Source: an uncultured virus (IMG/VR IMGVR_UViG_3300022074_000022) (taxonomy: Duplodnaviria > Heunggongvirae > Uroviricota > Caudoviricetes). From it: DNA of 20,000 nucleotides. The notes under the pieces were generated by a model, which worked only from the letters and a program-made list of their open reading frames with translations, was not told the DNA's origin and searched no databases. Location: IMG/VR virus record IMGVR_UViG_3300022074_000022, one strand, 5' to 3'. The translations under genes and the position numbers were made by a program. This document shows positions 1-18,973 of this stretch, one piece after another (position 1 is the stretch's first letter; the number at the start of each line of letters is the position of its first letter).

Positions 1-1
1 T

Positions 2-109
2 AAATTGACACGGCTGTTCGAGGAGATACGGAAGTGTCAAGTCTTGTGTGCTAACTGTCACGCTGTTAAGTCTTGCACGGACGAGAGGAGTAAACATGAC
101 TACGAGTGA
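2..109 (+). CDS. 3' end of a putative HNH endonuclease (partial, starts upstream of the window)
   Basis: Not in the ORF track. The frame starting at base 2 reads KLTRLFEEIRKCQVLCANCHAVKSCTDERSKHDYE* (TGA 107-109). EIxKCxVLCANCH is the typical C-terminal motif of phage HNH proteins. Confidence 0.7.
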   Translation, partial: KLTRLFEEIRKCQVLCANCHAVKSCTDERSKHDYE

Positions 110-692
110 CATGAATGTCATCACGTTCGACGTGGAGACGACACACATCGAAAAATCGAGTGGCGGAACTACAGCACTGCCGTACTTTGGCAATCATCTA
201 GTGTCTATAGGTTATAAGCCTTTGCGAGCTAGTGTAGTGTATGACTGCTACTATCACTCTACAGAAGAGCAAACAGAGGGTGCTTATCATCGCTTTCAGG
301 CCATCCTCGACGAGTGCGACGTCTTGATAGGCCACAACATTAAGTTCGACTTGCAGTGGATACGGGCCTGTGGTTTTGAGTACGAGGGAGATATCTATGA
401 TACGATGGTTGCAGAGTATATTCTATCGCGAGGACAGGGCTGGCCTCTTGACCTATCTTCTGTTGCAAGGAAGTATGGTGGAGTGCAGAAGGAGAAAGAC
501 TTGGTTCAGCCGTATCTTGATGCCGGTCACACGTTTTATGAGATACCGTGGGAGATTGTGAAAGAGTATGGTGAGATTGACGTCATAGCCACAGAGCAAG
601 TTGCTGTGAGTCAACTCGAAGAATTCGAAACTACATTTGAGGAGATATACCGTGTCAAAGAGCCTAGTGCCCACGTTGAAGCTGTCGCTTGA
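96..692 (+). CDS. Family A DNA polymerase 3'-5' proofreading exonuclease, encoded as a stand-alone ORF
   Basis: DnaQ-type motifs ExoI (FDVETT), ExoII (GHNIKFD) and ExoIII (YGEID), plus DTMVAEY. Start placed at ATG 96 because GAGGAG (85-90) lies 5 nt upstream; ATG 111 is an alternative. Confidence 0.88.
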   Translation: MTTSDMNVITFDVETTHIEKSSGGTTALPYFGNHLVSIGYKPLRASVVYDCYYHSTEEQTEGAYHRFQAILDECDVLIGHNIKFDLQWIRACGFEYEGDIYDTMVAEYILSRGQGWPLDLSSVARKYGGVQKEKDLVQPYLDAGHTFYEIPWEIVKEYGEIDVIATEQVAVSQLEEFETTFEEIYRVKEPSAHVEAVA

Positions 693-2187
693 GATGACGA
701 ATGTTTTGTCTCGCGTAGAGCGGAACGGACTGCGTATAAATCTTGATACCCTAGAGCAGATCAGGGAAGAGTACACCCGCGAGATGGAGGAGCTAGAAGA
801 GCGCCTCAATGACATGGCACGAGAAGCTATGGGGGACACGCCTGTGAGCTTGACTAGCCCTGATGACCGCTCGATGCTTCTCTACTCTCGTAAGGTAAAA
901 GATAAGAAGGAGTGGCGTCGCGTGTTTAACTTGGGCATGGAGCAGCGAGGCGCTACGATGAAACCGAAACAGCGCACACGCATGTCACGGGGCGAGTTCA
1001 ATCAGACTGTGCGTCGGATGACGGACGTCATGTACAAGACACGGGGCGAGCAGTGTCCTAAGTGTGGTGGCTTTGGGCGTGTGTCACCCACGAAGAAAGA
1101 CGGCACCCCCGGAAAGGCAATTCGTATCTGTAAGACGTGCGGCGGCACAGGTATACTTTATGTGCCTAGCAATACAGTTGCAGGGTTCAAGCTGGTGCCT
1201 ACAGACTCTTATGACGTGGCTACCGCCGGTTTCAAGACAGACAAGAACACACTAGAGATGCGTTCGTCTGACTTGTCAGGTGATGCTTTGGAATTCGTAA
1301 CGGCCTACACGCGCTACAATGCTCTTCGCACATATCTCAGCACGTTCGTAGAGGGAATTAAGAATAATGTGGACAAGAAAGAAATCATCCATCCGGAATT
1401 CATGCAGTGTGTTACGGCGACGGGTCGCCTTTCGAGTCGAAATCCTAATTTTCAAAATATGCCGCGTGGAAATACCTTCGAGATACGGAAGGTTGTCGAG
1501 AGCCGCTTCGAGGATGGCCTCATCGTTGAGGGAGATTACTCACAACTTGAGTTCCGTGTGGCGGGATTTCTAGCGAAGGATGCACAGGCTTACCTCGACG
1601 TCGAAGAAGGCACGGACGTTCACAGTTACACCGCTAGCGTTATAGGCTGCACACGGCAACAAGCCAAAGCTCACACGTTCAAGCCTCTGTACGGTGGTGT
1701 CAGCGGCACAGAGTCCCAGAGACGTTACTACTCCGCCTTCAAGGAAAAGTATGAGGGTGTCACCGAGTGGCACGATAGGCTGCAACGTGAGGCAGTTGAG
1801 AAGAGGTACATCACTCTGCCGTCCGGGCGACAGTACGCTTTTCCTAACGCTCGGTGGACTCACTATGGGACGGCGGTAGGACGCACTAACATCTGCAACT
1901 ATCCGGTGCAGGGCTTTGCCACGGCTGACTTGCTACCGGCAGCGCTCGTCCGTCTAGATAAATTATTTCGTGCTGCGGACTTACGATCTATCATCTGTAA
2001 CACCGTACACGATTCGATTGTTATAGACGTGCATCCACAAGAAAAAGACGTATGTATCAAGCTCATGCGTGAGGCTATGCTGTCACTTCCACGAGAAACT
2101 ATGGAGCGTTACGGCTTTCGATACGACATGCCGGTTGGTATCGAACTAAAGATAGGTAAAAACTGGCTTGACTTACACGACGTTTAG
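652..2187 (+). CDS. polA: Family A DNA polymerase (thumb/palm/fingers) with a DnaJ-like zinc-finger insertion
   Basis: TATGRLSS..PNFQN, motif A DYSQLEFR, motif B RQQAKAHTFKPLYG, NYPVQG, motif C TVHDS; two CxxCxGxG repeats at 1054-1152. Start placed at GTG 652, with GAGGAG at 639-644 and a 7-nt spacer; the track start is TTG 637. Confidence 0.93.
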   Translation: MSKSLVPTLKLSLEMTNVLSRVERNGLRINLDTLEQIREEYTREMEELEERLNDMAREAMGDTPVSLTSPDDRSMLLYSRKVKDKKEWRRVFNLGMEQRGATMKPKQRTRMSRGEFNQTVRRMTDVMYKTRGEQCPKCGGFGRVSPTKKDGTPGKAIRICKTCGGTGILYVPSNTVAGFKLVPTDSYDVATAGFKTDKNTLEMRSSDLSGDALEFVTAYTRYNALRTYLSTFVEGIKNNVDKKEIIHPEFMQCVTATGRLSSRNPNFQNMPRGNTFEIRKVVESRFEDGLIVEGDYSQLEFRVAGFLAKDAQAYLDVEEGTDVHSYTASVIGCTRQQAKAHTFKPLYGGVSGTESQRRYYSAFKEKYEGVTEWHDRLQREAVEKRYITLPSGRQYAFPNARWTHYGTAVGRTNICNYPVQGFATADLLPAALVRLDKLFRAADLRSIICNTVHDSIVIDVHPQEKDVCIKLMREAMLSLPRETMERYGFRYDMPVGIELKIGKNWLDLHDV

Positions 2188-2196
2188 ATGTAAGAT
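2168..2196 (+). promoter_or_regulatory. Putative sigma70-type promoter for the SSB/nuclease genes
   Basis: TTGACT (2168-2173), 17-nt spacer, TAAGAT (2191-2196), followed by AAGGAG and ATG 2231. It sits at one of the few intergenic gaps in the left arm. Confidence 0.65.
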
Positions 2197-2230
2197 CATT
2201 CTACAACCCCTGAACAAAGGAGTATCAGGA

Positions 2231-3103
2231 ATGTTAGGGACAAATATGGTAAATGTTTCGAACGAACTCGATCAGATCGCCGCAGCGTTTAATAGCGATG
2301 ATACTGAAAAACTTATGGAACTTACCGGACAAGGCTCCGGTGGTTCTGAGAAGAGCGGTCCTCCACGCTTGAGCATCAACTATGATGTGGCTACGGAAGA
2401 CGGCACACCTCTCACTCGCGGTGATTGGAAGATGTATGTCGATGGCCGCTTTATCTTTGCGTCGGAGGTAGTTCTCCGTCCGCTTCTCCGCATGTTCGAA
2501 TATAGCGTGTGGGACAACGAGGCTAATGACGGACGTGGCGGGTTCTCCTGCAAGTCAGTCCAGAAGCCTACGTTTTCGGGTGAGTTTCCTGACACGACGG
2601 GTGGCAACAAGTGTGGTCGCCTGTCGCGTGAGGAAGAGGAGAGTCTCGACAAGAACGATCCTCGTCTTTTGGAGTCTCGCTCTGTCGTATGTAATCAAGT
2701 CATCTACGGACGCATCAGCGGTGACTTCAAAGATGCAGAGGGCAACAATGTTCGTCTGAGTGATGAACCAGTGATTTCGTACTTCAAGAAGTCTGGCTTC
2801 TTGCCCATCTCGAACTTCATCAATGGTCTGGCGAAGCAGCGTAAGCTCATGGCACACTCTGAGATTATGTTGCGTACCGAGAAGCAGAAGAAGGGTTCAG
2901 TGACTTACTGGACTCCACTCCCGACGCTTCACGGGACTACGACTATTAGTGAAGCGGATAAGGAGCTTTTCGGTATGTTCCGTGACATGATCGAAAAGCA
3001 TAACAACGGTGTCATGGCATCCCACAGGGAAGCTACGAAACTGATAGTCGAAAGTAGCGACGCTGATTTGGCATCGGACTTCGATGATGCTAACGCTTCT
3101 TAG
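2231..3103 (+). CDS. Putative single-stranded DNA-binding protein
   Basis: 290 aa from ATG 2231 (AAAGGAG upstream). It lies directly after the polymerase, has an aromatic, beta-strand-like core and an acidic C-terminal tail (DADLASDFDDANAS). Function is inferred from position and composition. Confidence 0.55.
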   Translation: MLGTNMVNVSNELDQIAAAFNSDDTEKLMELTGQGSGGSEKSGPPRLSINYDVATEDGTPLTRGDWKMYVDGRFIFASEVVLRPLLRMFEYSVWDNEANDGRGGFSCKSVQKPTFSGEFPDTTGGNKCGRLSREEEESLDKNDPRLLESRSVVCNQVIYGRISGDFKDAEGNNVRLSDEPVISYFKKSGFLPISNFINGLAKQRKLMAHSEIMLRTEKQKKGSVTYWTPLPTLHGTTTISEADKELFGMFRDMIEKHNNGVMASHREATKLIVESSDADLASDFDDANAS

Positions 3104-3977
3104 AATCCAAGACTTCATGTCGCAAGCTGTGCAGGGGGACACTAACGTCTCCCTGTCCAGCCTTGATGCGTTCGTTGAAGAGTGTAAGGAAGCAGCAAAA
3201 CGTCAACTCTCTCGTGAAAAAGGCGACTGGCGCATACGGATGTCAGGCATAGGCAGACCTGTATGTCAGCAAATTCTTGACAAGCGAGGCATCAAAGAAG
3301 AGATGGAATATAATTCTATGTTCCGTTTTCTTTTTGGAGACTTCACTGAATCTATCCTCATGCTTGTTATGCGAGAGGCCGGTGTTGATATTGTAGACTA
3401 TCAAAAATCTGTAGAGCTTGACATAGCTGGTCACAAGGTCAAAGGAACCTTAGACGTTATCATACGTGATGAGGTGGGTATAGAGAAGGTGTGGGATATC
3501 AAGTCCGCTAGCGACTGGGCTTTCAAAAACAAGTTCACAAACTACGGCGGGTATGAGAAGATGAAAGAGGATGATCCCTTCGGTTATCTGATGCAGGGAT
3601 TTTTATACTCTGAGGCGTCTGGCCTTCCCTTCGGTGGGTGGATTGTAGTGAATAAGTCTAGCGGAGAAGTGGCTGTCGTCGAGGCAGCGGACTGGTCCGG
3701 TGAAGATAAAAAACACTACTTACAGCTTGCTGAAAACAGAATTCAAATTCTCGTTCAAGACAATCCAGAATTCGTAAGAATAAAAGATGTATTTGAGACG
3801 CACAAAAAAGACGGCACGGTAGTACGCACAGGTAATAAGGTTCTAACCAGACAGTGTCAGCTTTGTGGTTTTAGGAAACACTGCTGGCCTGACGCACAGC
3901 TTCATGCTCGTGTTACATCCCGCGCCAAAAGTCCCCCTCTTGAGTGGTACTCTAAGTTGAAGATAAAGGAAATGTAA
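3084..3977 (+). CDS. PD-(D/E)XK exonuclease, Cas4/RecB-like
   Basis: RMSGIGRPVCQ, GTLD...WDIKSAS catalytic motif, GYLMQGFLY, and C-terminal CQLCGFRKHC. One N-terminal plus three C-terminal Cys is the Cas4/AddB Fe-S arrangement. Confidence 0.75.
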   Translation: MMLTLLRIQDFMSQAVQGDTNVSLSSLDAFVEECKEAAKRQLSREKGDWRIRMSGIGRPVCQQILDKRGIKEEMEYNSMFRFLFGDFTESILMLVMREAGVDIVDYQKSVELDIAGHKVKGTLDVIIRDEVGIEKVWDIKSASDWAFKNKFTNYGGYEKMKEDDPFGYLMQGFLYSEASGLPFGGWIVVNKSSGEVAVVEAADWSGEDKKHYLQLAENRIQILVQDNPEFVRIKDVFETHKKDGTVVRTGNKVLTRQCQLCGFRKHCWPDAQLHARVTSRAKSPPLEWYSKLKIKEM

Positions 3978-4357
3978 TGTCTTTCCTGTTTATCAACAAC
4001 TACGATACAGAGCTTCTTGAGATGAACCCGGAAGCTCATCATCTTTATATAGAGTCTCATGTTCAGTTCGGTGGCGAAAGAAAAGTGCGTCAGTTACGAA
4101 ACAGTGACAGAGGCTTGCCCCTCACTCTGCGTGATAACTACAGCGACTTAGGTGCGCTATCCTCAAAGACAGAACAGAGAGATATTGTAGCTGTAGAATC
4201 TGAGCTACAAGAAATCGGAGCCGCTTCGAGACGAGGTGTTATTGTATGCGTTCCCCTGACCCCGTTAATCGGAGAGCTTTCAGCTATAGAAAAACTATCC
4301 CCAAAGCTAGGAATGTACGTTCTGCAAAGAATGGCGTCGATAGGAATGAGGCTATGA
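3977..4357 (+). CDS. Hypothetical protein (126 aa)
   Basis: Translationally coupled on both sides (TAATG and ATGA overlaps), with TAAGGA upstream. No motif recognised. Confidence 0.7.
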   Translation: MSFLFINNYDTELLEMNPEAHHLYIESHVQFGGERKVRQLRNSDRGLPLTLRDNYSDLGALSSKTEQRDIVAVESELQEIGAASRRGVIVCVPLTPLIGELSAIEKLSPKLGMYVLQRMASIGMRL

Positions 4358-4743
4358 AAAAAAGTTCTGCACAAAAAGCAGGATACAGATCAGCCTTCGA
4401 GTTGAACTTAGCTAAGTCTCTTGCTAACAACAATGTTTCTTTTGAATACGAATCTGAGAAACTATCTTATGTTCCCAAGCCTCGTGTGTACACTCCTGAC
4501 TTTTACTTGCCGGATCACAGCGTATATATCGAAGCGAAAGGGTACTTCGACAAGAGCGACAGAGTGAAGATGCAGCTTATCAAAGAACAGTATCCTGACC
4601 TTGATATACGAATCGTATTTTTGAATGCTCGAAACAAGATTTACAAGGGGAGCAAAACCTCATATGGTGACTGGGCAACCCGGCACAACTTTGAGTGGGC
4701 AGAGAAAAACATACCCGCAGATTGGTACAAAGAAGATGGATGA
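4354..4743 (+). CDS. T7 endonuclease I-like Holliday junction resolvase
   Basis: YRSAFE, YTPDF, IEAKGYF...DRVKM and DIRIVF...Y..WA motifs of T7 gp3. Start ATG 4354 overlaps the previous stop (ATGA). Confidence 0.88.
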   Translation: MKKSSAQKAGYRSAFELNLAKSLANNNVSFEYESEKLSYVPKPRVYTPDFYLPDHSVYIEAKGYFDKSDRVKMQLIKEQYPDLDIRIVFLNARNKIYKGSKTSYGDWATRHNFEWAEKNIPADWYKEDG

Positions 4744-5059
4744 ACTTGAAATACAGGCGACGATGGAAAAGATGTCGCTTCTACCTGACAGGTACTACAT
4801 CATACTAACACCATCAGGTGAGGGAGAGTTCCGTCTCACCGCGTATGATACGACTGACAATGAATACGAGACGGACGAAGATTTTAACGCTGCTTTCATA
4901 GTGCAAGAAGGTGTTCTCGCTATGATAAGAGATAAGACCGACGAGATATTCACTGAAGGTGTACACGCTATTCAGGGACAGCTTCTAGACGAAGATAAAA
5001 CCCTGATAGAGAGCATCTCAGAGAATGTAGTGAAAGTAGACTTTGGGAAGAAGCAATGA
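4736..5059 (+). CDS. Hypothetical acidic protein (107 aa)
   Basis: Start ATG 4736 overlaps the end of the endonuclease gene and its stop overlaps the MazG start. Ends in NVVKVDFGKKQ. Confidence 0.7.
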   Translation: MDELEIQATMEKMSLLPDRYYIILTPSGEGEFRLTAYDTTDNEYETDEDFNAAFIVQEGVLAMIRDKTDEIFTEGVHAIQGQLLDEDKTLIESISENVVKVDFGKKQ

Positions 5060-5391
5060 TCAAGAACAACTGGAACTTGAATAACTATCAGATGCAAGCT
5101 CGTAAGTTCGCTATCTATCCAGAGCGCACAAAGATCATCTATCCTGCACTGGGCCTCGCTGGAGAGGGCGGAGAAGTTGCCGACAAGGTAAAGAAGATTT
5201 ATCGAGACGGGCGGGATGACGCGAAATTCAAGGGAGAGATCGCGAAAGAGATAGGGGACGTTCTCTGGTATTGTGCGATGCTTGCGGAAGACTTAGGATT
5301 TTCTCTGCAACAGGTTGCGGAGATGAATATCTACAAGTTGCAGCAGCGTAAAGCTCTTGGTACTATTGTCGGCGACGGTGACAACCGTTGA
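5056..5391 (+). CDS. mazG: MazG-like nucleoside triphosphate pyrophosphohydrolase
   Basis: LGLAGEGGEVADKVKK...KEIGDVLWY..N..KL..R, the all-alpha NTP-PPase ExxE/ExxD signature. Confidence 0.88.
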   Translation: MIKNNWNLNNYQMQARKFAIYPERTKIIYPALGLAGEGGEVADKVKKIYRDGRDDAKFKGEIAKEIGDVLWYCAMLAEDLGFSLQQVAEMNIYKLQQRKALGTIVGDGDNR

Positions 5392-5693
5392 GACATGAGG
5401 AGTATATGAGGAAGATGGCAGAGCAAGAAAGCATGGCGAGTATGCAGAGTGCAGCGAATTTAGCGTGGGCTAACGGTCAGGCGGACATGGTTCACTCTCC
5501 GCCCCATTACAATCAAGCAGGAATCGAGTGTATCGATGCTATCCGCGCTGCTACTGACGGTGGGTATGAGTACTACCTACAAGGAAATATAATTAAATAC
5601 CTGTGGCGCTATCGTTATAAGAATGGCGTTGAAGACCTAGAAAAGGCAAAATGGTATTTGGAGAAACTCATTGAGGAGACAGAGAATGAATAA
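5388..5693 (+). CDS. DUF3310 (T7 gp1.7 nucleotide kinase-like) protein
   Basis: DMVHSPPHY...IECIDAI...GNIIKYLWRY..KNGVEDLEKAKWYL pattern. The start codon is uncertain (TTG 5388 or a downstream ATG). Confidence 0.8.
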   Translation: MRHEEYMRKMAEQESMASMQSAANLAWANGQADMVHSPPHYNQAGIECIDAIRAATDGGYEYYLQGNIIKYLWRYRYKNGVEDLEKAKWYLEKLIEETENE

Positions 5694-7614
5694 TATGTTA
5701 CCTACACCCTATCAGCAGTTTATACATAAGTCACGATACGCACGCTGGCTTGACGACGAGCAGCGCCGTGAGAACTGGGATGAAACTGTGTTCCGTTACA
5801 CGGACTTCATGCGTAATCATGTGAAGGACAAGCACAACTTTGAACTGCCGGAGACTGACCTGTTTGAAATCGAACAGGCTATCATTGGTCAAGAGATCAT
5901 GCCGTCGATGCGTGCGATGATGACTGCGGGTCCGGCTCTCGCTCGTGACAATATCTGTGGTTACAACTGTAGTTACATACCTGTTGACAGTCCTCGTGCT
6001 TTCGACGAGTGCATGTATATTCTGATGTGCGGCACAGGTGTGGGCTTCTCTGTTGAACGTGAGAACGTAGACAAGCTGCCTGTCGTCAGTGACGCGATGC
6101 ACGACACGGATACCGTGATCAAAGTTGGTGACTCGAAGCCGGGGTGGGCCAAATCTCTCCGAGAACTCATCGGTCTTCTCTACGTAGGTCAAGTACCGAA
6201 GTGGGACTTGTCAGAGGTACGCGCGTCCGGCGAACGCCTCAAGACTATGGGTGGCCGTGCATCTGGTCCGGGTCCGCTCGACGATCTGTTCAAGTTCACT
6301 GTCGAACTGTTCCGTAAGGCTCAGGGCCGTCGCCTCTTCCCGATTGAGTGTCACGACCTGATGTGCAAGATCGGTGAGATTGTCGTGGTGGGTGGCGTAC
6401 GTCGCTCTGCCCTCATCTCCCTGTCGAACCTCAACGACGATCAGATGGCACATGCCAAGTCAGGTGCGTGGTGGGAGAACGAGGGACAGCGTGCCCTCGC
6501 TAATAACTCCGTCTCCTACAAAGGCAAGCCTGAGATGGGAACCTTCTTGCGTGAGTGGCTTTCCCTCTACGACTCAAAGTCTGGAGAGCGTGGTATCTTC
6601 AATCGTGAAGCAGCGGACAAACAGGTAGCTCGTAACGGGCGTCGTGAGGCAGGACATATGTGGGGCACGAATCCCTGTTCAGAAATTATCTTGCGCCCGT
6701 ATCAATTCTGTAATCTGTCAGAAGTCGTTGTCCGTGAGAGCGACACACTTGAAGACTTGAAACGAAAAGTCCGTCTTGCTACGATACTGGGTACTATTCA
6801 ATCAACTCTAACTGACTTCAAGTATCTGAGGAAGGTATGGAAAAGCAACACGGAAGAAGAACGCTTGTTGGGTGTATCCTTGACTGGTGTCATGGATCAC
6901 TCCGTGCTATCAAAGACCGTAGACTCCCCTCGCTGGCTCGAAGAGATGCGCGACGTCGCCGTCACTACAAATCAGAAATATGCAAGTTTGCTGAGAATCC
7001 CCACAAGCGCTGCTATTACGTGTGTCAAGCCGTCGGGTACTGTGTCTCAGTTGGTAGACGCAGCAAGCGGTATCCACGCTAGACATAATGATTACTACAT
7101 CCGCACGGTTCGTGGTGACAACAAAGACCCGCTCACCAAGTTTCTCAAGGAACAGGGTGTGTACTCTGAGTCGTGTGTGATGAAGCCGGATTCTGTGACT
7201 GTGTTTTCATTCGCTATGAAATCACCTGAGTCTGCGGTGATACGCACACAGATGACAGCCATTGAGCAGCTAGAGTTGTGGAAGACGTATGCGATTCACT
7301 GGTGTGAACACAAGCCGTCTGTTACTATCACCGTGAAAGAACACGAGTGGATGGAAGTCGGAGCGTGGGTGTATGAAAACTTCGACGTAGCATCTGGTGT
7401 TTCATTCCTCCCGCATTCTGATCACACGTACCAGCAAGCGCCGTATCAAGATATCGAACGTGAAGATTATCTTGAGTGGCAGCAAGAGCGTGGAAAATTA
7501 GAGATAGACTGGGCTGCACTTTCTGTGTACGAAAAAGAAGATAACACTTCCGGTTCACGCGAGCTTGCGTGTACGTCGGGTGTGTGTGAAGTAGTAGACC
7601 TCAATGCTGCTTAA
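5686..7614 (+). CDS. nrdJ: Class II (adenosylcobalamin-dependent) ribonucleotide reductase, monomeric RTPR type
   Basis: MPSMR, YNCS, GTGVGFS, GGVRRSA, TNPCSEI (catalytic), CNLSE, TCVKPSGT and C-terminal redox pair CTSGVC. No beta-subunit gene is nearby. GAGGAG precedes ATG 5686. Confidence 0.9.
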   Translation: MNNMLPTPYQQFIHKSRYARWLDDEQRRENWDETVFRYTDFMRNHVKDKHNFELPETDLFEIEQAIIGQEIMPSMRAMMTAGPALARDNICGYNCSYIPVDSPRAFDECMYILMCGTGVGFSVERENVDKLPVVSDAMHDTDTVIKVGDSKPGWAKSLRELIGLLYVGQVPKWDLSEVRASGERLKTMGGRASGPGPLDDLFKFTVELFRKAQGRRLFPIECHDLMCKIGEIVVVGGVRRSALISLSNLNDDQMAHAKSGAWWENEGQRALANNSVSYKGKPEMGTFLREWLSLYDSKSGERGIFNREAADKQVARNGRREAGHMWGTNPCSEIILRPYQFCNLSEVVVRESDTLEDLKRKVRLATILGTIQSTLTDFKYLRKVWKSNTEEERLLGVSLTGVMDHSVLSKTVDSPRWLEEMRDVAVTTNQKYASLLRIPTSAAITCVKPSGTVSQLVDAASGIHARHNDYYIRTVRGDNKDPLTKFLKEQGVYSESCVMKPDSVTVFSFAMKSPESAVIRTQMTAIEQLELWKTYAIHWCEHKPSVTITVKEHEWMEVGAWVYENFDVASGVSFLPHSDHTYQQAPYQDIEREDYLEWQQERGKLEIDWAALSVYEKEDNTSGSRELACTSGVCEVVDLNAA

Positions 7615-7650
7615 TACCGTAACTGAAACTCAAGAAAAAGGAGAGTAGTG

Positions 7651-7740
7651 ATGCTTTTACTAGCTGGACCGTTCATCATCAAGTTCGCTTGGGCCGTCGC
7701 AATTATTGACGCTGGCGCATCCGCAGCAGGAATGAAATAG
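7651..7740 (+). CDS. Small hydrophobic peptide (29 aa)
   Basis: Not in the track. AAGGAG RBS then ATG 7651: MLLLAGPFIIKFAWAVAIIDAGASAAGMK*. The stop overlaps the next GTG start. Confidence 0.5.
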   Translation: MLLLAGPFIIKFAWAVAIIDAGASAAGMK

Positions 7741-7898
7741 TGAAAAAGAAGACAGAGGCCAAAGATAGCAGGCCCGTCTGGAAGCGGGGAAAAGACTGGA
7801 TACAGTTTAGTCCTCCCCGCAACCACCCCACTCATGAAGAATGGAGAAAGATCGTTGATCGAAGTAAAGATAACGCCTCACCTGATAGAGAGAGCTAA
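7740..7898 (+). CDS. Small Trp/Pro-rich hypothetical protein (52 aa)
   Basis: Not in the track. GTG 7740, coupled to the upstream TAG with AGGA upstream: MKKKTEAKDSRPVWKRGKDWIQFSPPRNHPTHEEWRKIVDRSKDNASPDRES*. Confidence 0.5.
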   Translation: MKKKTEAKDSRPVWKRGKDWIQFSPPRNHPTHEEWRKIVDRSKDNASPDRES

Positions 7899-8340
7899 AA
7901 AGAAAACTGCCACTGTAGGCGTCCTACAGGGCAGCATCACGGGCAGTAGAAGTCATGTGGTAGGGGCTATAGGCGAGCTTATCGTAGCAGACGCTACGGG
8001 CGCTCTAGAGGCGAATAACAGGGACTACGATCTTTTGCTGGGCGAAAAGCGCATCGACGTGAAAACGAAGCGCTGCAATACCAAGCCGAAAGATTACTAC
8101 GACTGCTCTATCGCTGCACACGGCACTAAGCAAGATTGTGATTCATATATCTTTGTTCGCATCACAACGAATATGGATCGTGCGTGGATTCTTGGAGAAG
8201 TCGATAAGAAAACATTTTATAAAGATGCAGAATTTCACCGTCGGGGTGATATCGATCCGGACAACGGGTTCGTGTTCAAAGCAGACTGCTACAACCTCCC
8301 GATAAATAAGTTGAGTCCTATCTATGAAGCAAGCGGCTAA
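7855..8340 (+). CDS. Hypothetical protein with a probable PD-(D/E)XK (restriction endonuclease-like) fold
   Basis: GAIGE...DYD.....IDVKTKR pattern. The likely start is TTG 7855 (GGAG 8 nt upstream); the track start is ATG 7834. Confidence 0.6.
   Translation: MIEVKITPHLIERAKKKTATVGVLQGSITGSRSHVVGAIGELIVADATGALEANNRDYDLLLGEKRIDVKTKRCNTKPKDYYDCSIAAHGTKQDCDSYIFVRITTNMDRAWILGEVDKKTFYKDAEFHRRGDIDPDNGFVFKADCYNLPINKLSPIYEASG
7897..7934 (-). terminator. Intrinsic terminator for the minus-strand (structural) transcript
   Basis: The minus strand reads CTGCC-CTGTAGG-ACG-CCTACAG-T-GGCAG-TTTTCTTTTT: a 12-bp stem with one bulge followed by a U-rich tract. Confidence 0.65.
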
Positions 8341-8539: not shown

Positions 8540-8870
8540 ACATAGCTTTTTGAATGGCTTTACCACGAGCCGTTTCGTACTCGTCTAGCTTACCGTCCTT
8601 ATTCAAGTCAGATTTCTTCTTGTCGATAGCGATGTCACCCTTTGACATTCCCATCATGCGGGTATTCGCCAACGACTTGGGCTGCTGCATCATCTGATTC
8701 TGCATCTGATTTTGCTGACCTTGTGTCGCAGTCATATTACCACCCCCGTAAGCTTTCTTGCGGGGTTTTTTAGTAGCCATGCCGCCGTACATCATGGGCT
8801 TCCTGCGAGCGGCACCGCCATACATCATGCCCTTACGAGGGCCGTTATTGTACGACTTCTTCATCTTCAT
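8523..8870 (-). CDS. Small basic protein with repeated (M/A)YGG motifs and a C-terminal EF-hand-like loop
   Basis: MMYGG twice, AYGGG, a Q/M-rich linker and DLNKDGKLDEYE. GAGGA RBS upstream of ATG 8870. Confidence 0.75.
   Translation of the reverse strand: MKMKKSYNNGPRKGMMYGGAARRKPMMYGGMATKKPRKKAYGGGNMTATQGQQNQMQNQMMQQPKSLANTRMMGMSKGDIAIDKKKSDLNKDGKLDEYETARGKAIQKAMSTRTA
8744..8771 (+). terminator. Intrinsic terminator for the plus-strand (replication arm) transcript
   Basis: CCCCGTAAG-CTTT-CTTGCGGGG-TTTTTT: a 9-bp stem with one G-U pair, a 4-nt loop and 6 U. Confidence 0.75.
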
Positions 8871-11800
8871 TTTCCTCTTCCTCTGAAGGCATGGGGTTGT
8901 GGATCGTTCCGAATGTGCGGAGATTTTCTCTGTCCGCCAGAACTTCTTCTAGTGTGGCGATGTTCTTGCCTGAGAGATACACGCCTTTTGCTATGTGAGC
9001 GTAAATACGAGCCTGTAGGGTGTTGTAGTCTGTTTTTGTCAGTGCGTCAGGATTAGTAAGAATCTTACCCATGACCAGTGCTGCTTGTGGATCGTTCAGG
9101 GCCATTTCCATAAGACTCTGTTGATTGATAAGCATAGCACGAGTGGCAAGTTCTGTACCGACATACAGAGGACTGACCATGCCTCGTGCGACGTTGAAGA
9201 TACGGGAGAATGCAGACTCGATAGTCATAAGCCCACTCGCACCTCCGCGACGGAAGTCGAGGCCATCTCCCATCGCTGTGGATGTCCAGTCTCTCATGCG
9301 TCGGATAGACTTGGCGTGTGTCTCCCCTAAGACTTCATTCATCAGCTTGATCTGATTCGGGTCAGATGTAATTTCGTTGAAGATTTCACCCTCCAACGAC
9401 ATCAACTCTAGAGGCTCTCCTTCCGGGGTGGGCTTGCTTGCTGTAGTCTTAACACGACGACGGGCCTTCGCGAAAAGCCCCTCTACGTACATGTACTTCA
9501 TAGCCTTCAATACTTCCGGACGGGAGAGGCCAGAGGTCGAGGTTAGCTCATCTACTTTTTTGTTGAAAGAATCAGGGGTGGCGTTTGCGAAGTACACGTC
9601 AAAAAACGCCTCTTTACGATTGACGAGTCCTGTATCGAAATCAAGTTGTTTTACGATGCTGTTCAAGCTTTGCAACTCTTGCTTAGCTGCAACACCCAAG
9701 ACCCCATTTATCGGATCGAGATCAGCCCTGAGTTTTTTGTACTCATTTTGATACTGTTTGTTGTTCGCAAGCATCGTGTCGAACTCGATGTGGAAGTAAT
9801 CGATGGAATCGAAGTTGGCCCCTCGAATGACGTCTTGATTGCCGTTTGAGTCTAGGATGTCCACCGACAGTTCATTCTCAATATCGAACATACGATGAGC
9901 GCGGTTGATGTTCAAGGCTCCTATACCCTTCGGAAGGTCTTGCATACCCTCTTGCAAAAGCTCAACAGCCACGTCTGTCTTTTCTAGGTAGTTACGGGCT
10001 ACACGATGTTGAATGTGAGCCTCTAGCAGGTTCTTGTAGATGCCGTATGCCTTCGCCTGATCCGGATCGCGCATATCGATTTCCATGTTACCGTCGGCAT
10101 TTCGCTTGCCGCCGATAGCATACAAGATTCTGTCATTTTCTTTATTGAGTTGCTTCAACAGATCAGCATGTTTCTGTGATCCGGCACGCACGTTCAGTAG
10201 CTGCGTTGATATGTCAGCTATCTTGAGGAACGGAGCCTCCGGATGATCTCTGTCAATGTTCCTGTAGCCATACGGCCCTTCACCTTCAGGACGATCTGCA
10301 GGGTCCCTTCTCACACGAGACGCAAGGGCCGGACCCATCCACGCATAATCAACCTTCGCATCTGTTCGTGCGCCCACTTCATCCCTGTAGGTCCTGCGTG
10401 CTAGTTCAATTTGCTTTTTGACCGCTGGGTCTAAATCGCCGTAAGCGGTGGTAATTAGCTTACGCATCTCGCTCTTAACCCTGTTGATTTCTGCTGCGTC
10501 CGTCTTACCCCCGATGCCGCGAAGCTCGAAGAAACGGTAGAGGTCTTCTGCTTCGGAGAAGTTAGCGCTAAGCAGTTGCTCCGCTCCCTCACCCTTATTT
10601 TGGATGGCTTCAATAGCGATTTCGAATTCTGTTATGTCTTCGCCATCCATCTCTGCACGCTGCCTTTTCAGGGCTGCGATATCTTCGGGAGTGTATCCCA
10701 TCTTGATAAGCTGACGCCTAGCCATAGTATTGAATGTGCCCAAGACAGCACGTCCGTCAGTCTTCAGGAATTTTCCGAAGTCTGTAAGCTGTTCAGCAAT
10801 CGGACGATCTTCTATGTCGCCCGAAAGTTTAGCTAGTCTTTCTACAACATTGACAAGATTAAACTCTCTGCCGCCAAGAATGACGTCTACTTTTTCGTAC
10901 TCTTTTCTAGCTCTAGCACGACGACGTCCGTATGTGATGTCAAGCAGAAGATCAGCGTTTTTACGAGACTCTGTGATAAACTCGCTCCGCTCCATGTCTG
11001 CGGCAAATCCTCGTAGATTTGTTGCTTGTTCGTTTGCTGAGTCTAGCATGTTTTGATGAGCGCGTTCGACGATCTGTCCTCGTGCTATAACACCCTGTAC
11101 GGTGCCCTCTGGCAGGATGGACATTCCTTCTAACTCCTCAGCCATACGCAACAGGTCATCGACCATCGTGCTGTCGGTATCACCTGCGGTGAGCATACCG
11201 ATGTTTCTTGTGTAGTTATCTAGAAGAAGAACAAGCTGCTGTTGCTTGACAAAGATAGCTTCACGCTGCCTCTCTGCTCCGCTCTCTAGATCGGCAATAA
11301 ATCCTTGCAACTGGGCATTATCACCTATGTTGATACCCTCTGCCGCAAATTGTTCTCGGATGAGTCGTATGTTGGCATCGATACCCTGTGCCAGCACCAT
11401 CTCTTCTCCTGTAGCTCGGATGAGAGATTGCATGTCGTTTGCATCGGTAAGCTTACCCGCAGTGACGAGATCGATTTTACCCTGCTGGAATTCGATGAGA
11501 GGGGCGAGTCCGGATGCCTTTGCCACACTTAGATGTAGCCTACTCATGATCTTTTCGCGACCTTCATTCGACATATCCAAAGCTTTGAGGTCAGCGTCGT
11601 AGCTCTGCATCATCTCCGTGTAGCGAGTGAGGGCACGATGTACTTCCTCGCGAGATTCTTCCGGCATCGCCCTGAGTATACGATTGAACTGATTGAATGC
11701 CTTCACACGAGTGTCGTCAAAATTAAAGCCGCTGATCTCTAGGGCTTCCCGCATCGCTCCCTCATCAGCATTCAAGATAGCATTGCGAGGGACCATCGGG

Positions 11801-13623
11801 AACATGTCGGAGTTCTCAAGAAGAACAGCAACATCAGTGAACAAGCCCTCTGTCATAGCGTCGCCTGTTCGAAATACTGTGCGTGCGCCAAGACCGACAA
11901 CGGCTGGAGTGACGATGGGAGCGGTTATACCCACGATGATTTCAGAGGGAACGCCGAATACGTCCATGTCCGGCAGGTATGTCTGTGCGGAAGCGACAGC
12001 ACCTGCGATTAGAACTTCGTCTCTCATAGCCGCTTTTACATACGGACTCTTTCCGACACTTGCTTTGTACCTGTCCCGGTTAGCTACAGCAACTCTCCGT
12101 GCTTCCTCTAGAGGCGCGAGCTTTTCGTTTATGTCGGGATCGATACGACCACTTTTCGGGGCGTTCAGTGCGTTTATTTGCGTGTCAATGTCGGCTATGT
12201 TTTGATCGTACTGTTTTAAGTTTTGATTTATGTCGGTGAGAGTATTACCGATGTTAAGCTGATTTTTTCGAGATGCTTTACCGATAGCACGAGTAACTTG
12301 CGCGACTCCGGGAACATAACCAGCAGCCTTGCCCACCGTGTTGCGGGTGCCATACCAAACCTTAGCTATGACGCTATTTGCGTCCCTGAAGTCATTCTTT
12401 CTAAGCCTTTCCATAACTTCTAGATCAGTCATAGATGCAGGGAACTGACCGAAGTCTATGGACTCTTTGTCGCCGCTGCGTGCGCGAGCGTCTGTAACAC
12501 GTCTCACAGAGCTTTTAGCTGCGGACTCAACTAGCTTCACGCCTCCGTAAGTAAAACCGGCTTGCTGTGTAAACAGAAGAGCCGCCTTAGCAGAGAAGGG
12601 CAATTCGTTGTACGTGAGTTCTAGGAGAGCGTTGGCAACTTGTGGCGGAAGCCCTACGTCACGGCGCTTGACTTTGCCATCTTCTCTCCGGACACGCTGT
12701 AGCGTACCATCCTCTCCGATTTCAACTAGCTGCTCTGTGTGGGTTTCGTTCCACGCATCTCGTCCGTACTCTCTTATGAAGTTAGCTTTGTACCAGCGCT
12801 GTAATCCCGCCACACGATCATCGGTAAGAAGGTTACTACCGAGAGCTTTCTCACCAAATTTAATAAATCCACTTTCTGACATACGTCTTCCGAAAGCGTC
12901 GGGCAGTTCGTCCCCAAAGGGCCTGTCTGAAACTACCGCATCTTTTACCGCTGCAACACCATTGTACATCATGGGGAAAACATAGGGCGTGCGTAACACG
13001 TCCCCCGGAACATTTCGTATCTCACGAAAGGCTGTAGCGAAAGTTTCACCATTTGAGAACCTACTCATGATGAGCCGCTTGCCCTTCAGGCCAAAGTTGA
13101 CGTGATCACCCACCATGACATCACGGAGACGGATGTTCTGCGACGTGATGGCTTCCATAGCCTGAACAAATCCCGCTGGCATACCCTCTGTTAGTTCTTT
13201 CGGCAGTCCGAACTCGAACGCAACAACAGGCTCCATCGGATCGGCTTGAGGCACCCTGTTTGCAGAGACGTACTCTTGAAGAAGCTGTCCCCTGAAACCC
13301 TGCTCGTTTCTCGCTTTTTCAAGAACGCTAGGCTCTAGTGCCCTGCCGTTAGGCAATAATACGTCGCCCCCGTTAGCTTTAATCGCTTCATTTATGTCGC
13401 GAGCGTTGATGATCGCATCAAATTTAGAGGTTAGAGCGTCTGGGCTGTCCTGCAGACCGCGCTGTTTTTTGACGTCTTCTCTAGCTATCGACGGAATGTC
13501 TACGGTTACTGTATCCACCGAAGCACCAGCAGTTTCGTCAGTGTCCCCGCCTATAACTACACTCTTAGGCTTAGAGACACTTTTAGGGAGCATAGAGATG
13601 TCTTGATCGAGGGCTGTCGCCAT
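8845..13623 (-). CDS. Large internal virion/ejection protein (T7 gp16-like position), 1592 aa
   Basis: Very long, helical-looking ORF with hydrophobic segments (e.g. IIVGITAPIVTPAVVGLG) and no Cys seen. It is the last large gene of the virion module. Function is inferred from size and synteny. Confidence 0.6.
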   Translation of the reverse strand: MATALDQDISMLPKSVSKPKSVVIGGDTDETAGASVDTVTVDIPSIAREDVKKQRGLQDSPDALTSKFDAIINARDINEAIKANGGDVLLPNGRALEPSVLEKARNEQGFRGQLLQEYVSANRVPQADPMEPVVAFEFGLPKELTEGMPAGFVQAMEAITSQNIRLRDVMVGDHVNFGLKGKRLIMSRFSNGETFATAFREIRNVPGDVLRTPYVFPMMYNGVAAVKDAVVSDRPFGDELPDAFGRRMSESGFIKFGEKALGSNLLTDDRVAGLQRWYKANFIREYGRDAWNETHTEQLVEIGEDGTLQRVRREDGKVKRRDVGLPPQVANALLELTYNELPFSAKAALLFTQQAGFTYGGVKLVESAAKSSVRRVTDARARSGDKESIDFGQFPASMTDLEVMERLRKNDFRDANSVIAKVWYGTRNTVGKAAGYVPGVAQVTRAIGKASRKNQLNIGNTLTDINQNLKQYDQNIADIDTQINALNAPKSGRIDPDINEKLAPLEEARRVAVANRDRYKASVGKSPYVKAAMRDEVLIAGAVASAQTYLPDMDVFGVPSEIIVGITAPIVTPAVVGLGARTVFRTGDAMTEGLFTDVAVLLENSDMFPMVPRNAILNADEGAMREALEISGFNFDDTRVKAFNQFNRILRAMPEESREEVHRALTRYTEMMQSYDADLKALDMSNEGREKIMSRLHLSVAKASGLAPLIEFQQGKIDLVTAGKLTDANDMQSLIRATGEEMVLAQGIDANIRLIREQFAAEGINIGDNAQLQGFIADLESGAERQREAIFVKQQQLVLLLDNYTRNIGMLTAGDTDSTMVDDLLRMAEELEGMSILPEGTVQGVIARGQIVERAHQNMLDSANEQATNLRGFAADMERSEFITESRKNADLLLDITYGRRRARARKEYEKVDVILGGREFNLVNVVERLAKLSGDIEDRPIAEQLTDFGKFLKTDGRAVLGTFNTMARRQLIKMGYTPEDIAALKRQRAEMDGEDITEFEIAIEAIQNKGEGAEQLLSANFSEAEDLYRFFELRGIGGKTDAAEINRVKSEMRKLITTAYGDLDPAVKKQIELARRTYRDEVGARTDAKVDYAWMGPALASRVRRDPADRPEGEGPYGYRNIDRDHPEAPFLKIADISTQLLNVRAGSQKHADLLKQLNKENDRILYAIGGKRNADGNMEIDMRDPDQAKAYGIYKNLLEAHIQHRVARNYLEKTDVAVELLQEGMQDLPKGIGALNINRAHRMFDIENELSVDILDSNGNQDVIRGANFDSIDYFHIEFDTMLANNKQYQNEYKKLRADLDPINGVLGVAAKQELQSLNSIVKQLDFDTGLVNRKEAFFDVYFANATPDSFNKKVDELTSTSGLSRPEVLKAMKYMYVEGLFAKARRRVKTTASKPTPEGEPLELMSLEGEIFNEITSDPNQIKLMNEVLGETHAKSIRRMRDWTSTAMGDGLDFRRGGASGLMTIESAFSRIFNVARGMVSPLYVGTELATRAMLINQQSLMEMALNDPQAALVMGKILTNPDALTKTDYNTLQARIYAHIAKGVYLSGKNIATLEEVLADRENLRTFGTIHNPMPSEEEENEDEEVVQ

Positions 13624-16205: not shown

Positions 16206-16206
16206 C

Positions 16207-16767
16207 TTATTCCGACTCCTTCTCGTCCATCATATTCATAAAGTTTTCTGGTTCTGGTGCTTGAGGTATCGCACCCCTGCGAATATCTTCGTTCATCTTT
16301 TCTTTGATGACAGAGAACATCTGCGGATTGTTTTCTTTCATCATCGAGAAGAATGTACGGTCATCCATCTCATCACTTGCAAGCTCATCGTTGTTCTCAA
16401 AGAACCGATACGGAATGCCCTCTTCCTCCGCCATGCCAGCAATAGTCATGGCGAGCGGACCTTTGATAAGCACTGCAACGTCTGGTGTGAAGCGTCCCTC
16501 TTGAAAGCCTTGAATGAGATACCCCTCTACGAGAGCCTCTACAGACACACCGACCATGAGGAGTTTCATCAACTCCGTCTGTTGACGAGGTTGTTCGAGA
16601 GCGTCGAGGGCCTCTTGCAGGACCATCTCCGGATCGACATGACGGGGAGGTTGACCCCACGGCCAGCGAGAGTTATCGAGTGTTAAGCTGTGTCCCGGAG
16701 GCGCTGTAGCAAACGGGTCTTTAGCCTCTATAGTTCCGACTTCGGGGGTTGCTCTTGAAAGTTTCAT
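16207..16767 (-). CDS. Hypothetical virion-module protein (186 aa)
   Basis: Coupled ORF (ATGA overlap) containing PPGHSLT..WPWGQPP and FTPDVAVL. Function unknown. Confidence 0.7.
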   Translation of the reverse strand: MKLSRATPEVGTIEAKDPFATAPPGHSLTLDNSRWPWGQPPRHVDPEMVLQEALDALEQPRQQTELMKLLMVGVSVEALVEGYLIQGFQEGRFTPDVAVLIKGPLAMTIAGMAEEEGIPYRFFENNDELASDEMDDRTFFSMMKENNPQMFSVIKEKMNEDIRRGAIPQAPEPENFMNMMDEKESE

Positions 16768-17237
16768 CGTACATCAATCTCTCTGAGTGACGGAGCTTCG
16801 AGGGCAGCAGTCTTTTTACCCTGACGTGTGGTCGGAGACACGACCCCTGCGTCACGGAGCATAGAATTTAACTGATTGTCACGGGAGCCGGACATGAGAG
16901 GCTGCACCCGCCTCTGAACCGTAGGGTTGCTGTAAAGACGTTGTTGAACAGGATCGAGACGCATAGCTCTCGCCCCCGGATCACCCCGCGTCAGTTCTTG
17001 CACGCTGCGATTTTGACGTGCAGTTGCAGGAGTGAATACGCCCCCTGTCATTCGACCGCCTTGATCCATGAGTCCCTGTGATTGAAGAAGTGCCTGTGCG
17101 CCCTGCTTCATAAAAGGAGAAACCATAAAACCACTAGACTTGCTAGAGGCTGCAGCTTGAGCGGCTTGTCCGCCAAATCCGCCACCTGCAAAGAGGGCAA
17201 GACCTACGCCCAGTGCTGTTTTAAGTCCGAATCCCAT
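16764..17237 (-). CDS. Putative small internal virion protein (gp14-like), 157 aa
   Basis: Gly/Ala-rich hydrophobic N-terminus (MGFGLKTALGVGLALFAGGGFGG), located upstream of the large internal proteins. Confidence 0.5.
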   Translation of the reverse strand: MGFGLKTALGVGLALFAGGGFGGQAAQAAASSKSSGFMVSPFMKQGAQALLQSQGLMDQGGRMTGGVFTPATARQNRSVQELTRGDPGARAMRLDPVQQRLYSNPTVQRRVQPLMSGSRDNQLNSMLRDAGVVSPTTRQGKKTAALEAPSLREIDVR

Positions 17238-18583: not shown

Positions 18584-18783
18584 TACTTAATTCCCATAAA
18601 TACTGTGACGACCATAGCCACAACTAGAATCGTGCTACCCATAATCATCGCCTCAAGCCGCCACATGCGCTTGTCGAGGGCGTCGAGCTTCTCTTGCACA
18701 GCGGCATAGCGAATAGCGCACTCCTTCTCGTGTGCTTCGAGTTCCATCTGGGTTTTGAGTACGGGTTCCATCGCCATCTTCAT
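18583..18783 (-). CDS. Small coiled-coil membrane protein (XhlA/holin-like), 66 aa
   Basis: HEKECAIRY coiled-coil segment followed by one C-terminal hydrophobic helix (AMIMGSTILVVAMVVTVFMGI). Confidence 0.55.
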   Translation of the reverse strand: MKMAMEPVLKTQMELEAHEKECAIRYAAVQEKLDALDKRMWRLEAMIMGSTILVVAMVVTVFMGIK

Positions 18784-18971
18784 CAGTCGGCGTCGAGGAT
18801 TGTCAGGTCACCGGCTGCGACCTGTCGTTGAATTTCGGCGTAGTGGCGATTGCCGGGAGAGTTATTAGGAACATACCAAGTGTAGCCATCTACAACTATT
18901 TTAATAGATGGCGTACTGTTTGTAAGAGAATCAAATTGATACTGTGCCGATGTTATATTCATGCTGTTCAT
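18783..18971 (-). CDS. Putative tail fibre assembly chaperone-like small protein (62 aa)
   Basis: Directly follows the tail fibre gene. YVP...NRHYAEI.RQV.AG.LTI.DAD resembles small proteins that follow phage fibre genes. Confidence 0.55.
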   Translation of the reverse strand: MNSMNITSAQYQFDSLTNSTPSIKIVVDGYTWYVPNNSPGNRHYAEIQRQVAAGDLTILDAD

Positions 18972-18973
18972 AA

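Follow-up and report, generated by a model that had tools for sequence, protein, structure and literature searches.

A conserved split of the family A DNA polymerase into exonuclease and polymerase genes in an uncultured clade of HMO-2011-type phages

Introduction

Phages of the HMO-2011 type are among the most abundant groups of marine viruses, and their family A DNA polymerase (PolA) serves as a marker gene. The hallmark of this enzyme, according to the body text of two published descriptions (PMC9038755, PMC6918029), is a partial DnaJ central domain with two CXXCXGXG motifs that lies between the exonuclease and the polymerase domains. HMO-2011 gp12 (680 amino acids, aa) and HTVC033P gp22 (678 aa) are each annotated as one coding sequence, and the body text of three papers on this group (PMC9038755, PMC6918029, PMC6302109) speaks of a single-chain enzyme only and does not use "split" or "frameshift" in the sense meant here. 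Full-text literature searches, with subscription papers, figures and supplements lying outside their reach, returned no report of a split between exonuclease (exo) and polymerase (pol) in HMO-2011-type phages. Here we analyze a 20,000-nucleotide (nt) stretch of DNA from an uncultured caudoviricete (IMG/VR record IMGVR_UViG_3300022074_000022), to which, at its full length, we refer as the window, and near the beginning of which this enzyme appears as two genes instead of one.

In E. coli Pol III (alpha/epsilon) and in archaeal PolD (DP2/DP1), polymerase and 3'-5' exonuclease reside on different polypeptides that act as one enzyme; these polymerases, however, belong to families unrelated to that of the window's enzyme, whose two parts are halves of one chain in all close cultured relatives. 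Within PolA itself, exo/pol fission has been described in S-SBP1-like T7-like cyanophages by Czernecki et al. (2023, Nucleic Acids Res 51:4488, PMC10201439), whose discussion also names PolD. In the body text of that article, the offset is +1, a new stop has arisen 13 bp downstream and a new start 21 bp upstream, the arrangement is read as gene fission and not as frameshifting and is called the first such case in PolA, an AlphaFold2 model of the complex superposes on a fused relative, and PolAs are said to need the exonuclease domain for stability. Nowhere does the same text mention HMO-2011, Puniceispirillum, Pelagibacter or Roseobacter. An earlier, sequence-only reading of the window had cited T7 gp5 and the described HMO-2011 polymerase as single polypeptides; the view that PolA is known solely in this form has been made outdated by the cyanophage fission in print. 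Yet another split polymerase, that of the MEP401-type OM43 phage, differs in that its break lies inside the polymerase domain, where a small open reading frame (ORF) is inserted and for which the authors suggest an intron (body text of PMC10580990), whereas the break in the window lies at the exo/pol boundary.

Results

Exonuclease and polymerase are encoded in two overlapping frames

The two genes and their motifs are listed in Table 1. The product of 96-692 matches PF01612, the 3'-5' exonuclease family of Pfam (E 1.7e-11, 44.7 bits against a cut-off of 23.6), and DNA_pol_A (PF00476) is the family matched by the product of the second ORF (E 4.9e-51; 174.3 bits, cut-off 34.3), whose match to PF00684, DnaJ_CXXCXGXG, stays below threshold (16.8 bits, cut-off 32.7, E 0.0082). 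A profile built from alignment A2 of the polymerase half matches the Klenow fragment with an E-value of 1.3e-37. Across an alignment of 41 split and fused sequences, D12, E14, D85, Y158 and D162 of the exonuclease, D295, E300, R335, K339, F343, Y347, G348, H453 and D454 of the polymerase, and C135, C138, C160 and C163 of the CXXCXGXG motifs are all invariant.

The polymerase frame is +1 relative to that of the exonuclease, and the two are open jointly over 83 nt (610-692), from the polymerase-frame stop TGA at 607-609 to the exonuclease stop at 690-692. The sequence-only reading had assigned all proofreading motifs to 96-692 and all polymerase motifs to a +1 frame ending at 2187, had limited the joint opening to 610-692, and had pointed to a GAGGAG (639-644) seven nucleotides ahead of an in-frame GTG at 652; motifs and coordinates are borne out exactly. 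Gene callers arrive at the same products, namely a 511-aa polymerase for this very sequence (P0001) and, elsewhere, an exonuclease of 198-199 aa. Conservation of the exonuclease extends to about residue 185 (..TTFEEIY), and residues 186-198 form an unconserved tail that is read from the overlap.

Table 1. Features of the exonuclease/polymerase locus of the window
Feature	Position	Strand	Remarks
Exonuclease gene	96..692	+	ATG 96 to TGA 690-692; 198 aa
Shine-Dalgarno (SD)-like GAGGAG of exonuclease gene	85..90	+	5 nt before ATG 96; putative function
Exo I motif D12-x-E14	129..137	+	both residues invariant in alignment A1
Exo II motif N81-x-K-F-D85	336..350	+	N81, K83, F84, D85 invariant in A1
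Exo III motif Y158-x3-D162	567..581	+	both residues invariant in A1
Final polymerase-frame stop (TGA) upstream of polymerase gene	607..609	+	
SD GAGGAG of polymerase gene	639..644	+	within exonuclease coding sequence, codons Glu-Glu
Polymerase GTG start codon	652..654	+	7 nt after GAGGAG, in frame
Exonuclease/polymerase gene overlap, 41 nt	652..692	+	polymerase frame is the constrained frame
Polymerase gene	652..2187	+	511 aa; stop TAG 2185-2187
Two CXXCXGXG zinc-finger motifs (CPKCGGFG ... CKTCGGTG)	1054..1152	+	polymerase residues 135-142 and 160-167
Polymerase motif A (DYSQLE)	1534..1551	+	D295, Q298, L299, E300 invariant
Polymerase motif B (RQQAKAHTFKPLYG)	1654..1695	+	Phe at discriminating position; R335, K339, F343, Y347, G348 invariant
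Polymerase motif C (HD)	2008..2013	+	H453, D454 invariant
Small HNH endonuclease gene, 3' end (last 35 codons)	2..109	+	PHROG HNH families, E 3.6e-07 to 2.8e-06

The locus compared with its closest described relatives

The 12 closest phage records are HTVC033P, HMO-2011 (listed twice) and nine CRP roseophages, with polymerase identities of 37-47%, and the phage records that follow have at most 35% identity or lower coverage. The polymerase of the window is 47% identical to HTVC033P gp22 and 42% to HMO-2011 gp12, and the exonuclease is 33-41% identical to its HTVC033P, HMO-2011 and CRP counterparts; a nucleotide search of phage genomes yielded only a 90-nt match, so there are no close sequenced phages. 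Like the window, the fused HMO-2011-type enzymes have two CXXCXGXG motifs and a primase-helicase-polymerase gene order. In eight CRP and HTVC records, however, the tblastn matches of exonuclease and polymerase fall in the same frame, and where the fused relatives have an inter-domain linker of 3-4 residues, the window has TTFEEIY, a stop and a new start, which places the split exactly at that point. The window thus has the CXXCXGXG insert and the closest relatives of an HMO-2011-type enzyme, but not its single polypeptide.

With the S-SBP1-like cyanophages, the window shares adjacent, overlapping exo and pol genes, a +1 offset with a new exonuclease stop a short way downstream and a new polymerase start a short way upstream, and new termini that are predicted to be loose (body text of PMC10201439). 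In both, a shift in frame has produced the adjacent genes, and the start of the polymerase and the stop of the exonuclease are conserved. The S-SBP1-like PolA, as described there, falls into T7-like cluster #5 and has Tyr as motif B's third conserved residue, whereas the window has Phe (F343) and the CXXCXGXG insert. Judged by motif B Tyr and the thioredoxin-binding-domain region, the window lies outside the T7-like cluster, given that Phe343 is invariant and the nearest relatives are of the HMO-2011 type. The split in the window is independent of the S-SBP1-like event; it works like that family without being a member of it.

The frame offset is shared by all 76 relatives with both halves

With the polymerase half as the query, IMG/VR yielded at least 598 relatives, the best 80 of which were kept and, together with the locus of the nearest record, make up 81 loci. 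Three of these are cut at the contig end ahead of the exonuclease; the remaining 78 hold both halves and comprise 76 non-identical relatives and two copies identical to the window. Over window positions 1-2400, G001, the nearest record, matches at 100% and was treated as the same sequence, not as independent support. Among these best matches, the polymerase is in the +1 frame relative to the exonuclease in 78/78 loci with both halves. The 76 relatives stem from many metagenomes and have polymerase identities of 70-80% and exonuclease identities of 56-74%.

Independent sequence across the junction came from a public sequencing run of another study and another year (X10), a 1080-nt contig of which spans window positions 335-1414 with 24 substitutions and no gap and is identical to the window between 600 and 890. 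The contigs of two further runs (X4 and X5) do not bridge the junction, and one from X4 joins position 481 to 660 through 172 other letters, as a diverged relative would; neither run was used as evidence.

The exact start of the exonuclease is a separate matter. Its five-codon N-terminal extension (MTTSD) is absent from most relatives, which begin at the equivalent of Met6 with MNVLTFD, and sequence from X10 has a 3-nt insertion (ACG) after position 101 along with substitutions at 94, 95 and 100. The true start may be either ATG 96 or ATG 111.

Start codon, SD sequence and coding constraint at the junction

Junctions were compared over 77 loci, which have 46 distinct junction sequences. The codon homologous to GTG 652 is ATG in 66 loci, GTG in 6 (the window included) and TTG in 5, and no other codon occurs at this place; by distinct junctions, the numbers are 39, 5 and 2. 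Upstream of the polymerase start, all 77 loci have AGGA, GAGG or GGAG, and in 76 of them an AGGA-type SD stands at a fixed spacing of 8 nt from its GGA to the start codon. The first codon of the Glu/Lys pair that bears the SD ends in G in 45 of the 46 distinct junctions, as compared with only 52% GAG among all Glu codons of these genes. Since the hexamer GAGGAG is found in the window at chance frequency (11 matches against 12.4 expected), the claim of a ribosome binding site (RBS) rests on conservation in the relatives and not on the motif in a single sequence. It is this conservation of SD and start codon that supports the proposal of the sequence-only reading that the second gene has an RBS of its own and begins with GTG 652.

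The start codon also marks a switch in coding constraint. Over the eight codons upstream of it, mean pairwise identity is 0.80 in the exonuclease frame versus 0.62 in the polymerase frame, and the exonuclease frame is conserved as far as F-G-T-T-F-E-E-L-Y, directly ahead of the start. In the overlap downstream, the values are 0.87 for the polymerase frame, which reads L-[LIV]-P-T-L-[KR]-L-S, versus 0.36 for the exonuclease frame, the stop of which varies in position from 29 to 41 nt past the polymerase start. The residues just after the start differ in number and kind (MSKS, MNT, MEKG, MTNN, MS and others), much as N-termini do, and in 11 of the 77 loci the polymerase frame opens only 18 nt ahead of its start. 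For the junction RNA, the predicted fold is no more stable than those of shuffled sequences (z +0.80), and Rfam gave no match at E <= 1 over window positions 1-2400. Transcriptional slippage, inteins and trans-splicing were dropped as explanations, the junction having homopolymers of at most three letters and the window's genes no intein-like insert.

Sister lineages carry the split with other junctions

Loci retrieved with two other representatives of the family comprise 46 that are fused, 18 with a +1 offset, 15 with a -1 offset, 13 that are cut and 2 that end before the exonuclease. The junctions of the split ones take several forms. In L116 and L121, a stop in the polymerase frame directly precedes the ATG start; in the L180 group, start and stop overlap as TTGA, and such TTGA overlaps account for the 15 loci in the -1 frame; in L215, the ATG start overlaps the exonuclease stop as ATGA. 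In L184 (2918-3010), a 41-nt tandem duplication puts the exonuclease stop before the polymerase frame opens, so that no frameshift can join the two; it is the only non-overlapping pair that we have seen. The cistrons overlap or abut in all split lineages except L184, where they are separate but adjacent, and, wherever there is enough upstream sequence, the exonuclease gene directly adjoins the polymerase gene in 78/78 window-type loci and in 33/33 split sister loci. A follow-up of short forms with two additional representatives (P0201 and P0164) gave no usable loci in IMG/VR.

The split clade is large and old

Homologues of the polymerase number 3740 in a protein collection clustered at 90%, and the best 120 of them are all 499-515 aa long. 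The stand-alone exonuclease is represented by 606 clusters, of which the best 120 have lengths of 187-200 aa throughout. Among proteins of at least 348 aa, just 10 match the exonuclease; 9 of these have the whole exonuclease domain, at no more than 43% identity. The tenth (P0307, 573 aa) had seemed to be a close long form but was rejected as a fused polymerase, since the match ends after the first 130 residues and what follows is low-complexity sequence of no relation.

A maximum-likelihood tree was built from 43 polymerase halves whose genomic context had been checked; it unites the split lineages A (the window type), C and D in one clade (ultrafast bootstrap, UFboot, 94; Shimodaira-Hasegawa-like approximate likelihood ratio test, SH-aLRT, 89) that is sister to a fused clade (100/98). 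The split lineage L084 stands outside the A/C/D clade on a long branch, and two changes of state are required in all 200 bootstrap trees. Branches of the split clade are only 55-58% identical to each other in the polymerase, which makes this a long-lasting arrangement. Set against the S-SBP1-like case, the clade is old and its junctions have diversified (+1, -1 and no overlap). Among 115 full-length representatives at 50% identity, 19 are short forms that start at the same boundary, and genomic context was checked for three of these lineages (P0026, P0123 and a 67% relative of P0127). A FastTree tree of the representatives, from which 35 of 150 had been dropped as partial, suggests 9 changes for the short form, at least 6 of them forced; since it takes the short form from protein lengths alone, it was not relied on.

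About 18 family representatives are much longer, at 900-1341 aa (P0128, P0158, P0163, P0175, P0178, P0182, P0183, P0188 and others), and they align in 2-3 separate stretches, with a break often near query residue 345 in motif B. By their appearance, these would be variants of this polymerase with intein- or endonuclease-bearing inserts.

Predicted folds of the two halves

The AlphaFold2 model of the exonuclease has a mean predicted local distance difference test score (pLDDT) of 88.8 and a predicted template modelling score (pTM) of 0.85, with residues 189-198 below 50. In a comparison of folds, the Pol I exonuclease domain of E. coli ranks best (8oo6_A, TMq 0.68), and the exonuclease domains of other PolAs match as well. 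For the polymerase, the respective values are 87.1 and 0.78; its first helix begins at residue 6, and low confidence is confined to residues 1-5 and a loop near motif B (residues 341-350). Each half is thus predicted to fold confidently alone, the models being uncertain at the new termini and in one polymerase loop near motif B.

Discussion

The gene split described here is confirmed as real and conserved, and as a fission of a kind already known from other phages. On the comparative sequence evidence, we consider it very probable that it represents a fixed gene fission of an HMO-2011-type family A polymerase at the exonuclease/polymerase domain boundary, and that it operates as follows. The exonuclease would be translated from ATG 96 up to TGA 690, and ribosomes would initiate separately at GTG 652 by means of the GAGGAG embedded in the final conserved codons of the exonuclease. 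The resulting 511-aa polymerase would start five residues ahead of the first helix of the polymerase domain, and the 41-nt overlap would leave the exonuclease with a 13-residue tail, unconstrained and predicted to be disordered. Both proteins would be made in roughly coupled amounts from one mRNA and would come together again, by non-covalent contacts, as the equivalent of the fused HMO-2011 or HTVC033P enzyme, a replicase with proofreading.

Several points weigh against this proposal. The 77 junction loci are not independent events, many of them being close kin. The SD sits on conserved Glu-Glu codons, so that part of its conservation stems from constraint on the protein; and because Met, Val and Leu are interchangeable inside proteins, the start-codon argument leans on the absence of CTG, ATT and the like and on the other evidence. 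A low level of +1 shifting may conceivably occur alongside separate initiation. As for expression, an oligo-dT RNA-seq library of a marine metagenome (run X23) holds two 151-nt contigs identical to the polymerase gene, which cover only 1144-1294 and 1354-1504, could derive from DNA carry-over and are thus no proof of transcription; they were not used as evidence.

If the offset were a sequencing or assembly error, or a recent frameshift that inactivated a normally fused gene and left a pseudogene, the single record would indeed be insufficient to tell, the more so as the nearest record, identical over its full compared length, may come from the same assembly. The same offset is, however, carried by 76/76 non-identical relatives, the X10 contig crosses the junction without a gap, the catalytic residues of both halves are all intact, and hundreds of protein clusters exist at both stand-alone lengths, all of which makes this explanation negligible; the one-base assembly error that the sequence-only reading had kept as an alternative is excluded by the relatives and the contig. 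That reading had also named two findings that would speak against it, reads with an indel fusing the frames and close relatives with a fused gene and no RBS. Neither was encountered: the independent contig bridges 335-1414 gap-free, and 76/76 relatives keep the break, the SD and the homologous start codon. A programmed +1 ribosomal frameshift within 634-692, making a fused PolA either alone or beside the separate proteins, deserves more attention. The frames overlap with a +1 offset throughout the window-type clade, an SD-like GAGGAG lies just upstream, as does the SD-like element that stimulates the +1 shift in prfB, and, as fused homologues show, the structure would tolerate a fusion whose linker is a little longer. 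A prfB-type site, however, has a shift-prone codon at a slow codon or a stop, an SD about 3 nt upstream and a downstream frame without a start of its own, whereas here no conserved shift-prone codon is followed by a stop or a rare codon, a conserved start stands 8 nt after the SD core, and neither a stable or conserved RNA structure nor an Rfam match was found. Moreover, the exonuclease stop of the window lies 38 nt beyond the conserved start, and a shift there would replace L-x-P-T-L-K-L-S by an unconserved frame, while upstream of the start, constraint acts in the exonuclease frame and the polymerase frame is, in 11 loci, barely open. On the sequences, the junctions of the sister lineages settle the matter, given the stop directly before ATG in L116 and L121, the frames of L184 that cannot be joined and the 15 loci offset by -1 and not +1: no single frameshift mechanism fits them, and separate initiation fits them all. 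The +1 shift near ACA-TTT-GAG that the sequence-only reading had considered is disfavoured as well, and we regard programmed frameshifting as highly improbable.

A different question is whether the two products associate. They could be the products of separate genes that form no stable complex, with the polymerase at work in the absence of bound proofreading and the exonuclease acting in trans or in another pathway; proofreading would then be detachable and fidelity would depend on the subunit ratio, as the sequence-only reading had suggested. The Klenow exo and pol domains can be made separately, each half of the window's enzyme is predicted to fold alone, and the sequence has no sign of binding. 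On the other hand, the genes adjoin in every split locus and, L184 apart, overlap or are coupled, which fits co-expressed partners. By analogy with the cyanophages, for which the body text of PMC10201439 has the modelled complex superpose on the fused enzyme and PolAs depend on their exonuclease domain for stability, the halves would be expected to stay together as well. We therefore hold the absence of a complex to be unlikely. In the same vein, tuning of fidelity by the subunit ratio would, if anything, be less likely given how closely the cistrons overlap or are coupled in each of the lineages. That they overlap or abut in all lineages but L184 would argue for coupled expression of partners and not for an adjustable ratio. 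What stands of the true two-subunit PolA put forward by the sequence-only reading are two genes with separate initiation, supported by the relatives, the start codon, the SD and the switch in constraint; the association of their products is what we infer.

Gene fission with separate initiation, as we propose for the window, bears on how these phages are surveyed. A whole clade has its polymerase as two genes, and surveys that demand a long single protein could undercount it. The published phylogeny of HMO-2011-type polymerases, according to the body text of PMC9038755, was restricted to sequences of more than 540 aa and a coverage of 80% or higher, a filter that would drop the split clade. This clade represents a second, independent natural PolA with its proofreading domain as a separate chain, one that is widespread and old, and it leaves the general picture drawn by the 2023 cyanophage report unchanged. 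Its many natural junction variants, along with the close fused relatives, offer a convenient test of what the covalent link contributes to fidelity and processivity. Bolder still, and in our estimate a long shot, is the idea of an old, large and abundant uncultured HMO-2011-type marine clade with a heterodimeric PolA, the proofreading subunit of which is dissociable, and with repeated splitting, possibly also re-fusing, at the domain boundary. If this were true, dissociability would allow tuning of the mutation rate or use of the exonuclease in trans, for instance in recombination or end processing.

Neighbouring genes and possible hosts

The small HNH gene at the left end of the window lies between the genes for a DnaB-like helicase and the exonuclease, overlapping the start of the latter by 14 nt, and its complete ORF is found in an overlapping record (L002, 2120-2473). 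Homologues with 33-56% identity (E <= 1.5e-11) occur upstream of the exonuclease gene, at variable distance, in the loci of 36 relatives, whereas HTVC033P and HMO-2011 have no gene at this position; carrying the HNH gene sets the window clade apart from the fused relatives. It may be a mobile, homing-type element, and it is part of the context and not of the split.

Further upstream, the overlapping IMG/VR record encodes a primase and the DnaB-like helicase. Downstream, as far as about 8.3 kb, the + strand is taken up by a module for replication and nucleotide metabolism, with a Cas4-like exonuclease, an endonuclease, MazG, a nucleotide kinase and ribonucleotide reductase, and past 8.8 kb the - strand carries large structural genes, a tail fibre among them; two - strand ORFs of 1592 aa and 860 aa have no PHROG match. 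The two gene blocks (1-8340 on the + strand and 8845-19999 on the - strand) converge near 8.4-8.8 kb.

As to hosts, a near-identical 199-aa exonuclease (P0272 / P0274) has been entered under a Hyphomonas sp. metagenome-assembled genome (MAG), as a hypothetical protein on a 26.8-kb contig, and a 7.9-kb contig of a Parvibaculum sp. MAG (L217) has a window-type junction with 64% identity in the polymerase. As the sole indications of a host, these two labels are either hints to marine Alphaproteobacteria or the result of phage contigs having been mis-binned.

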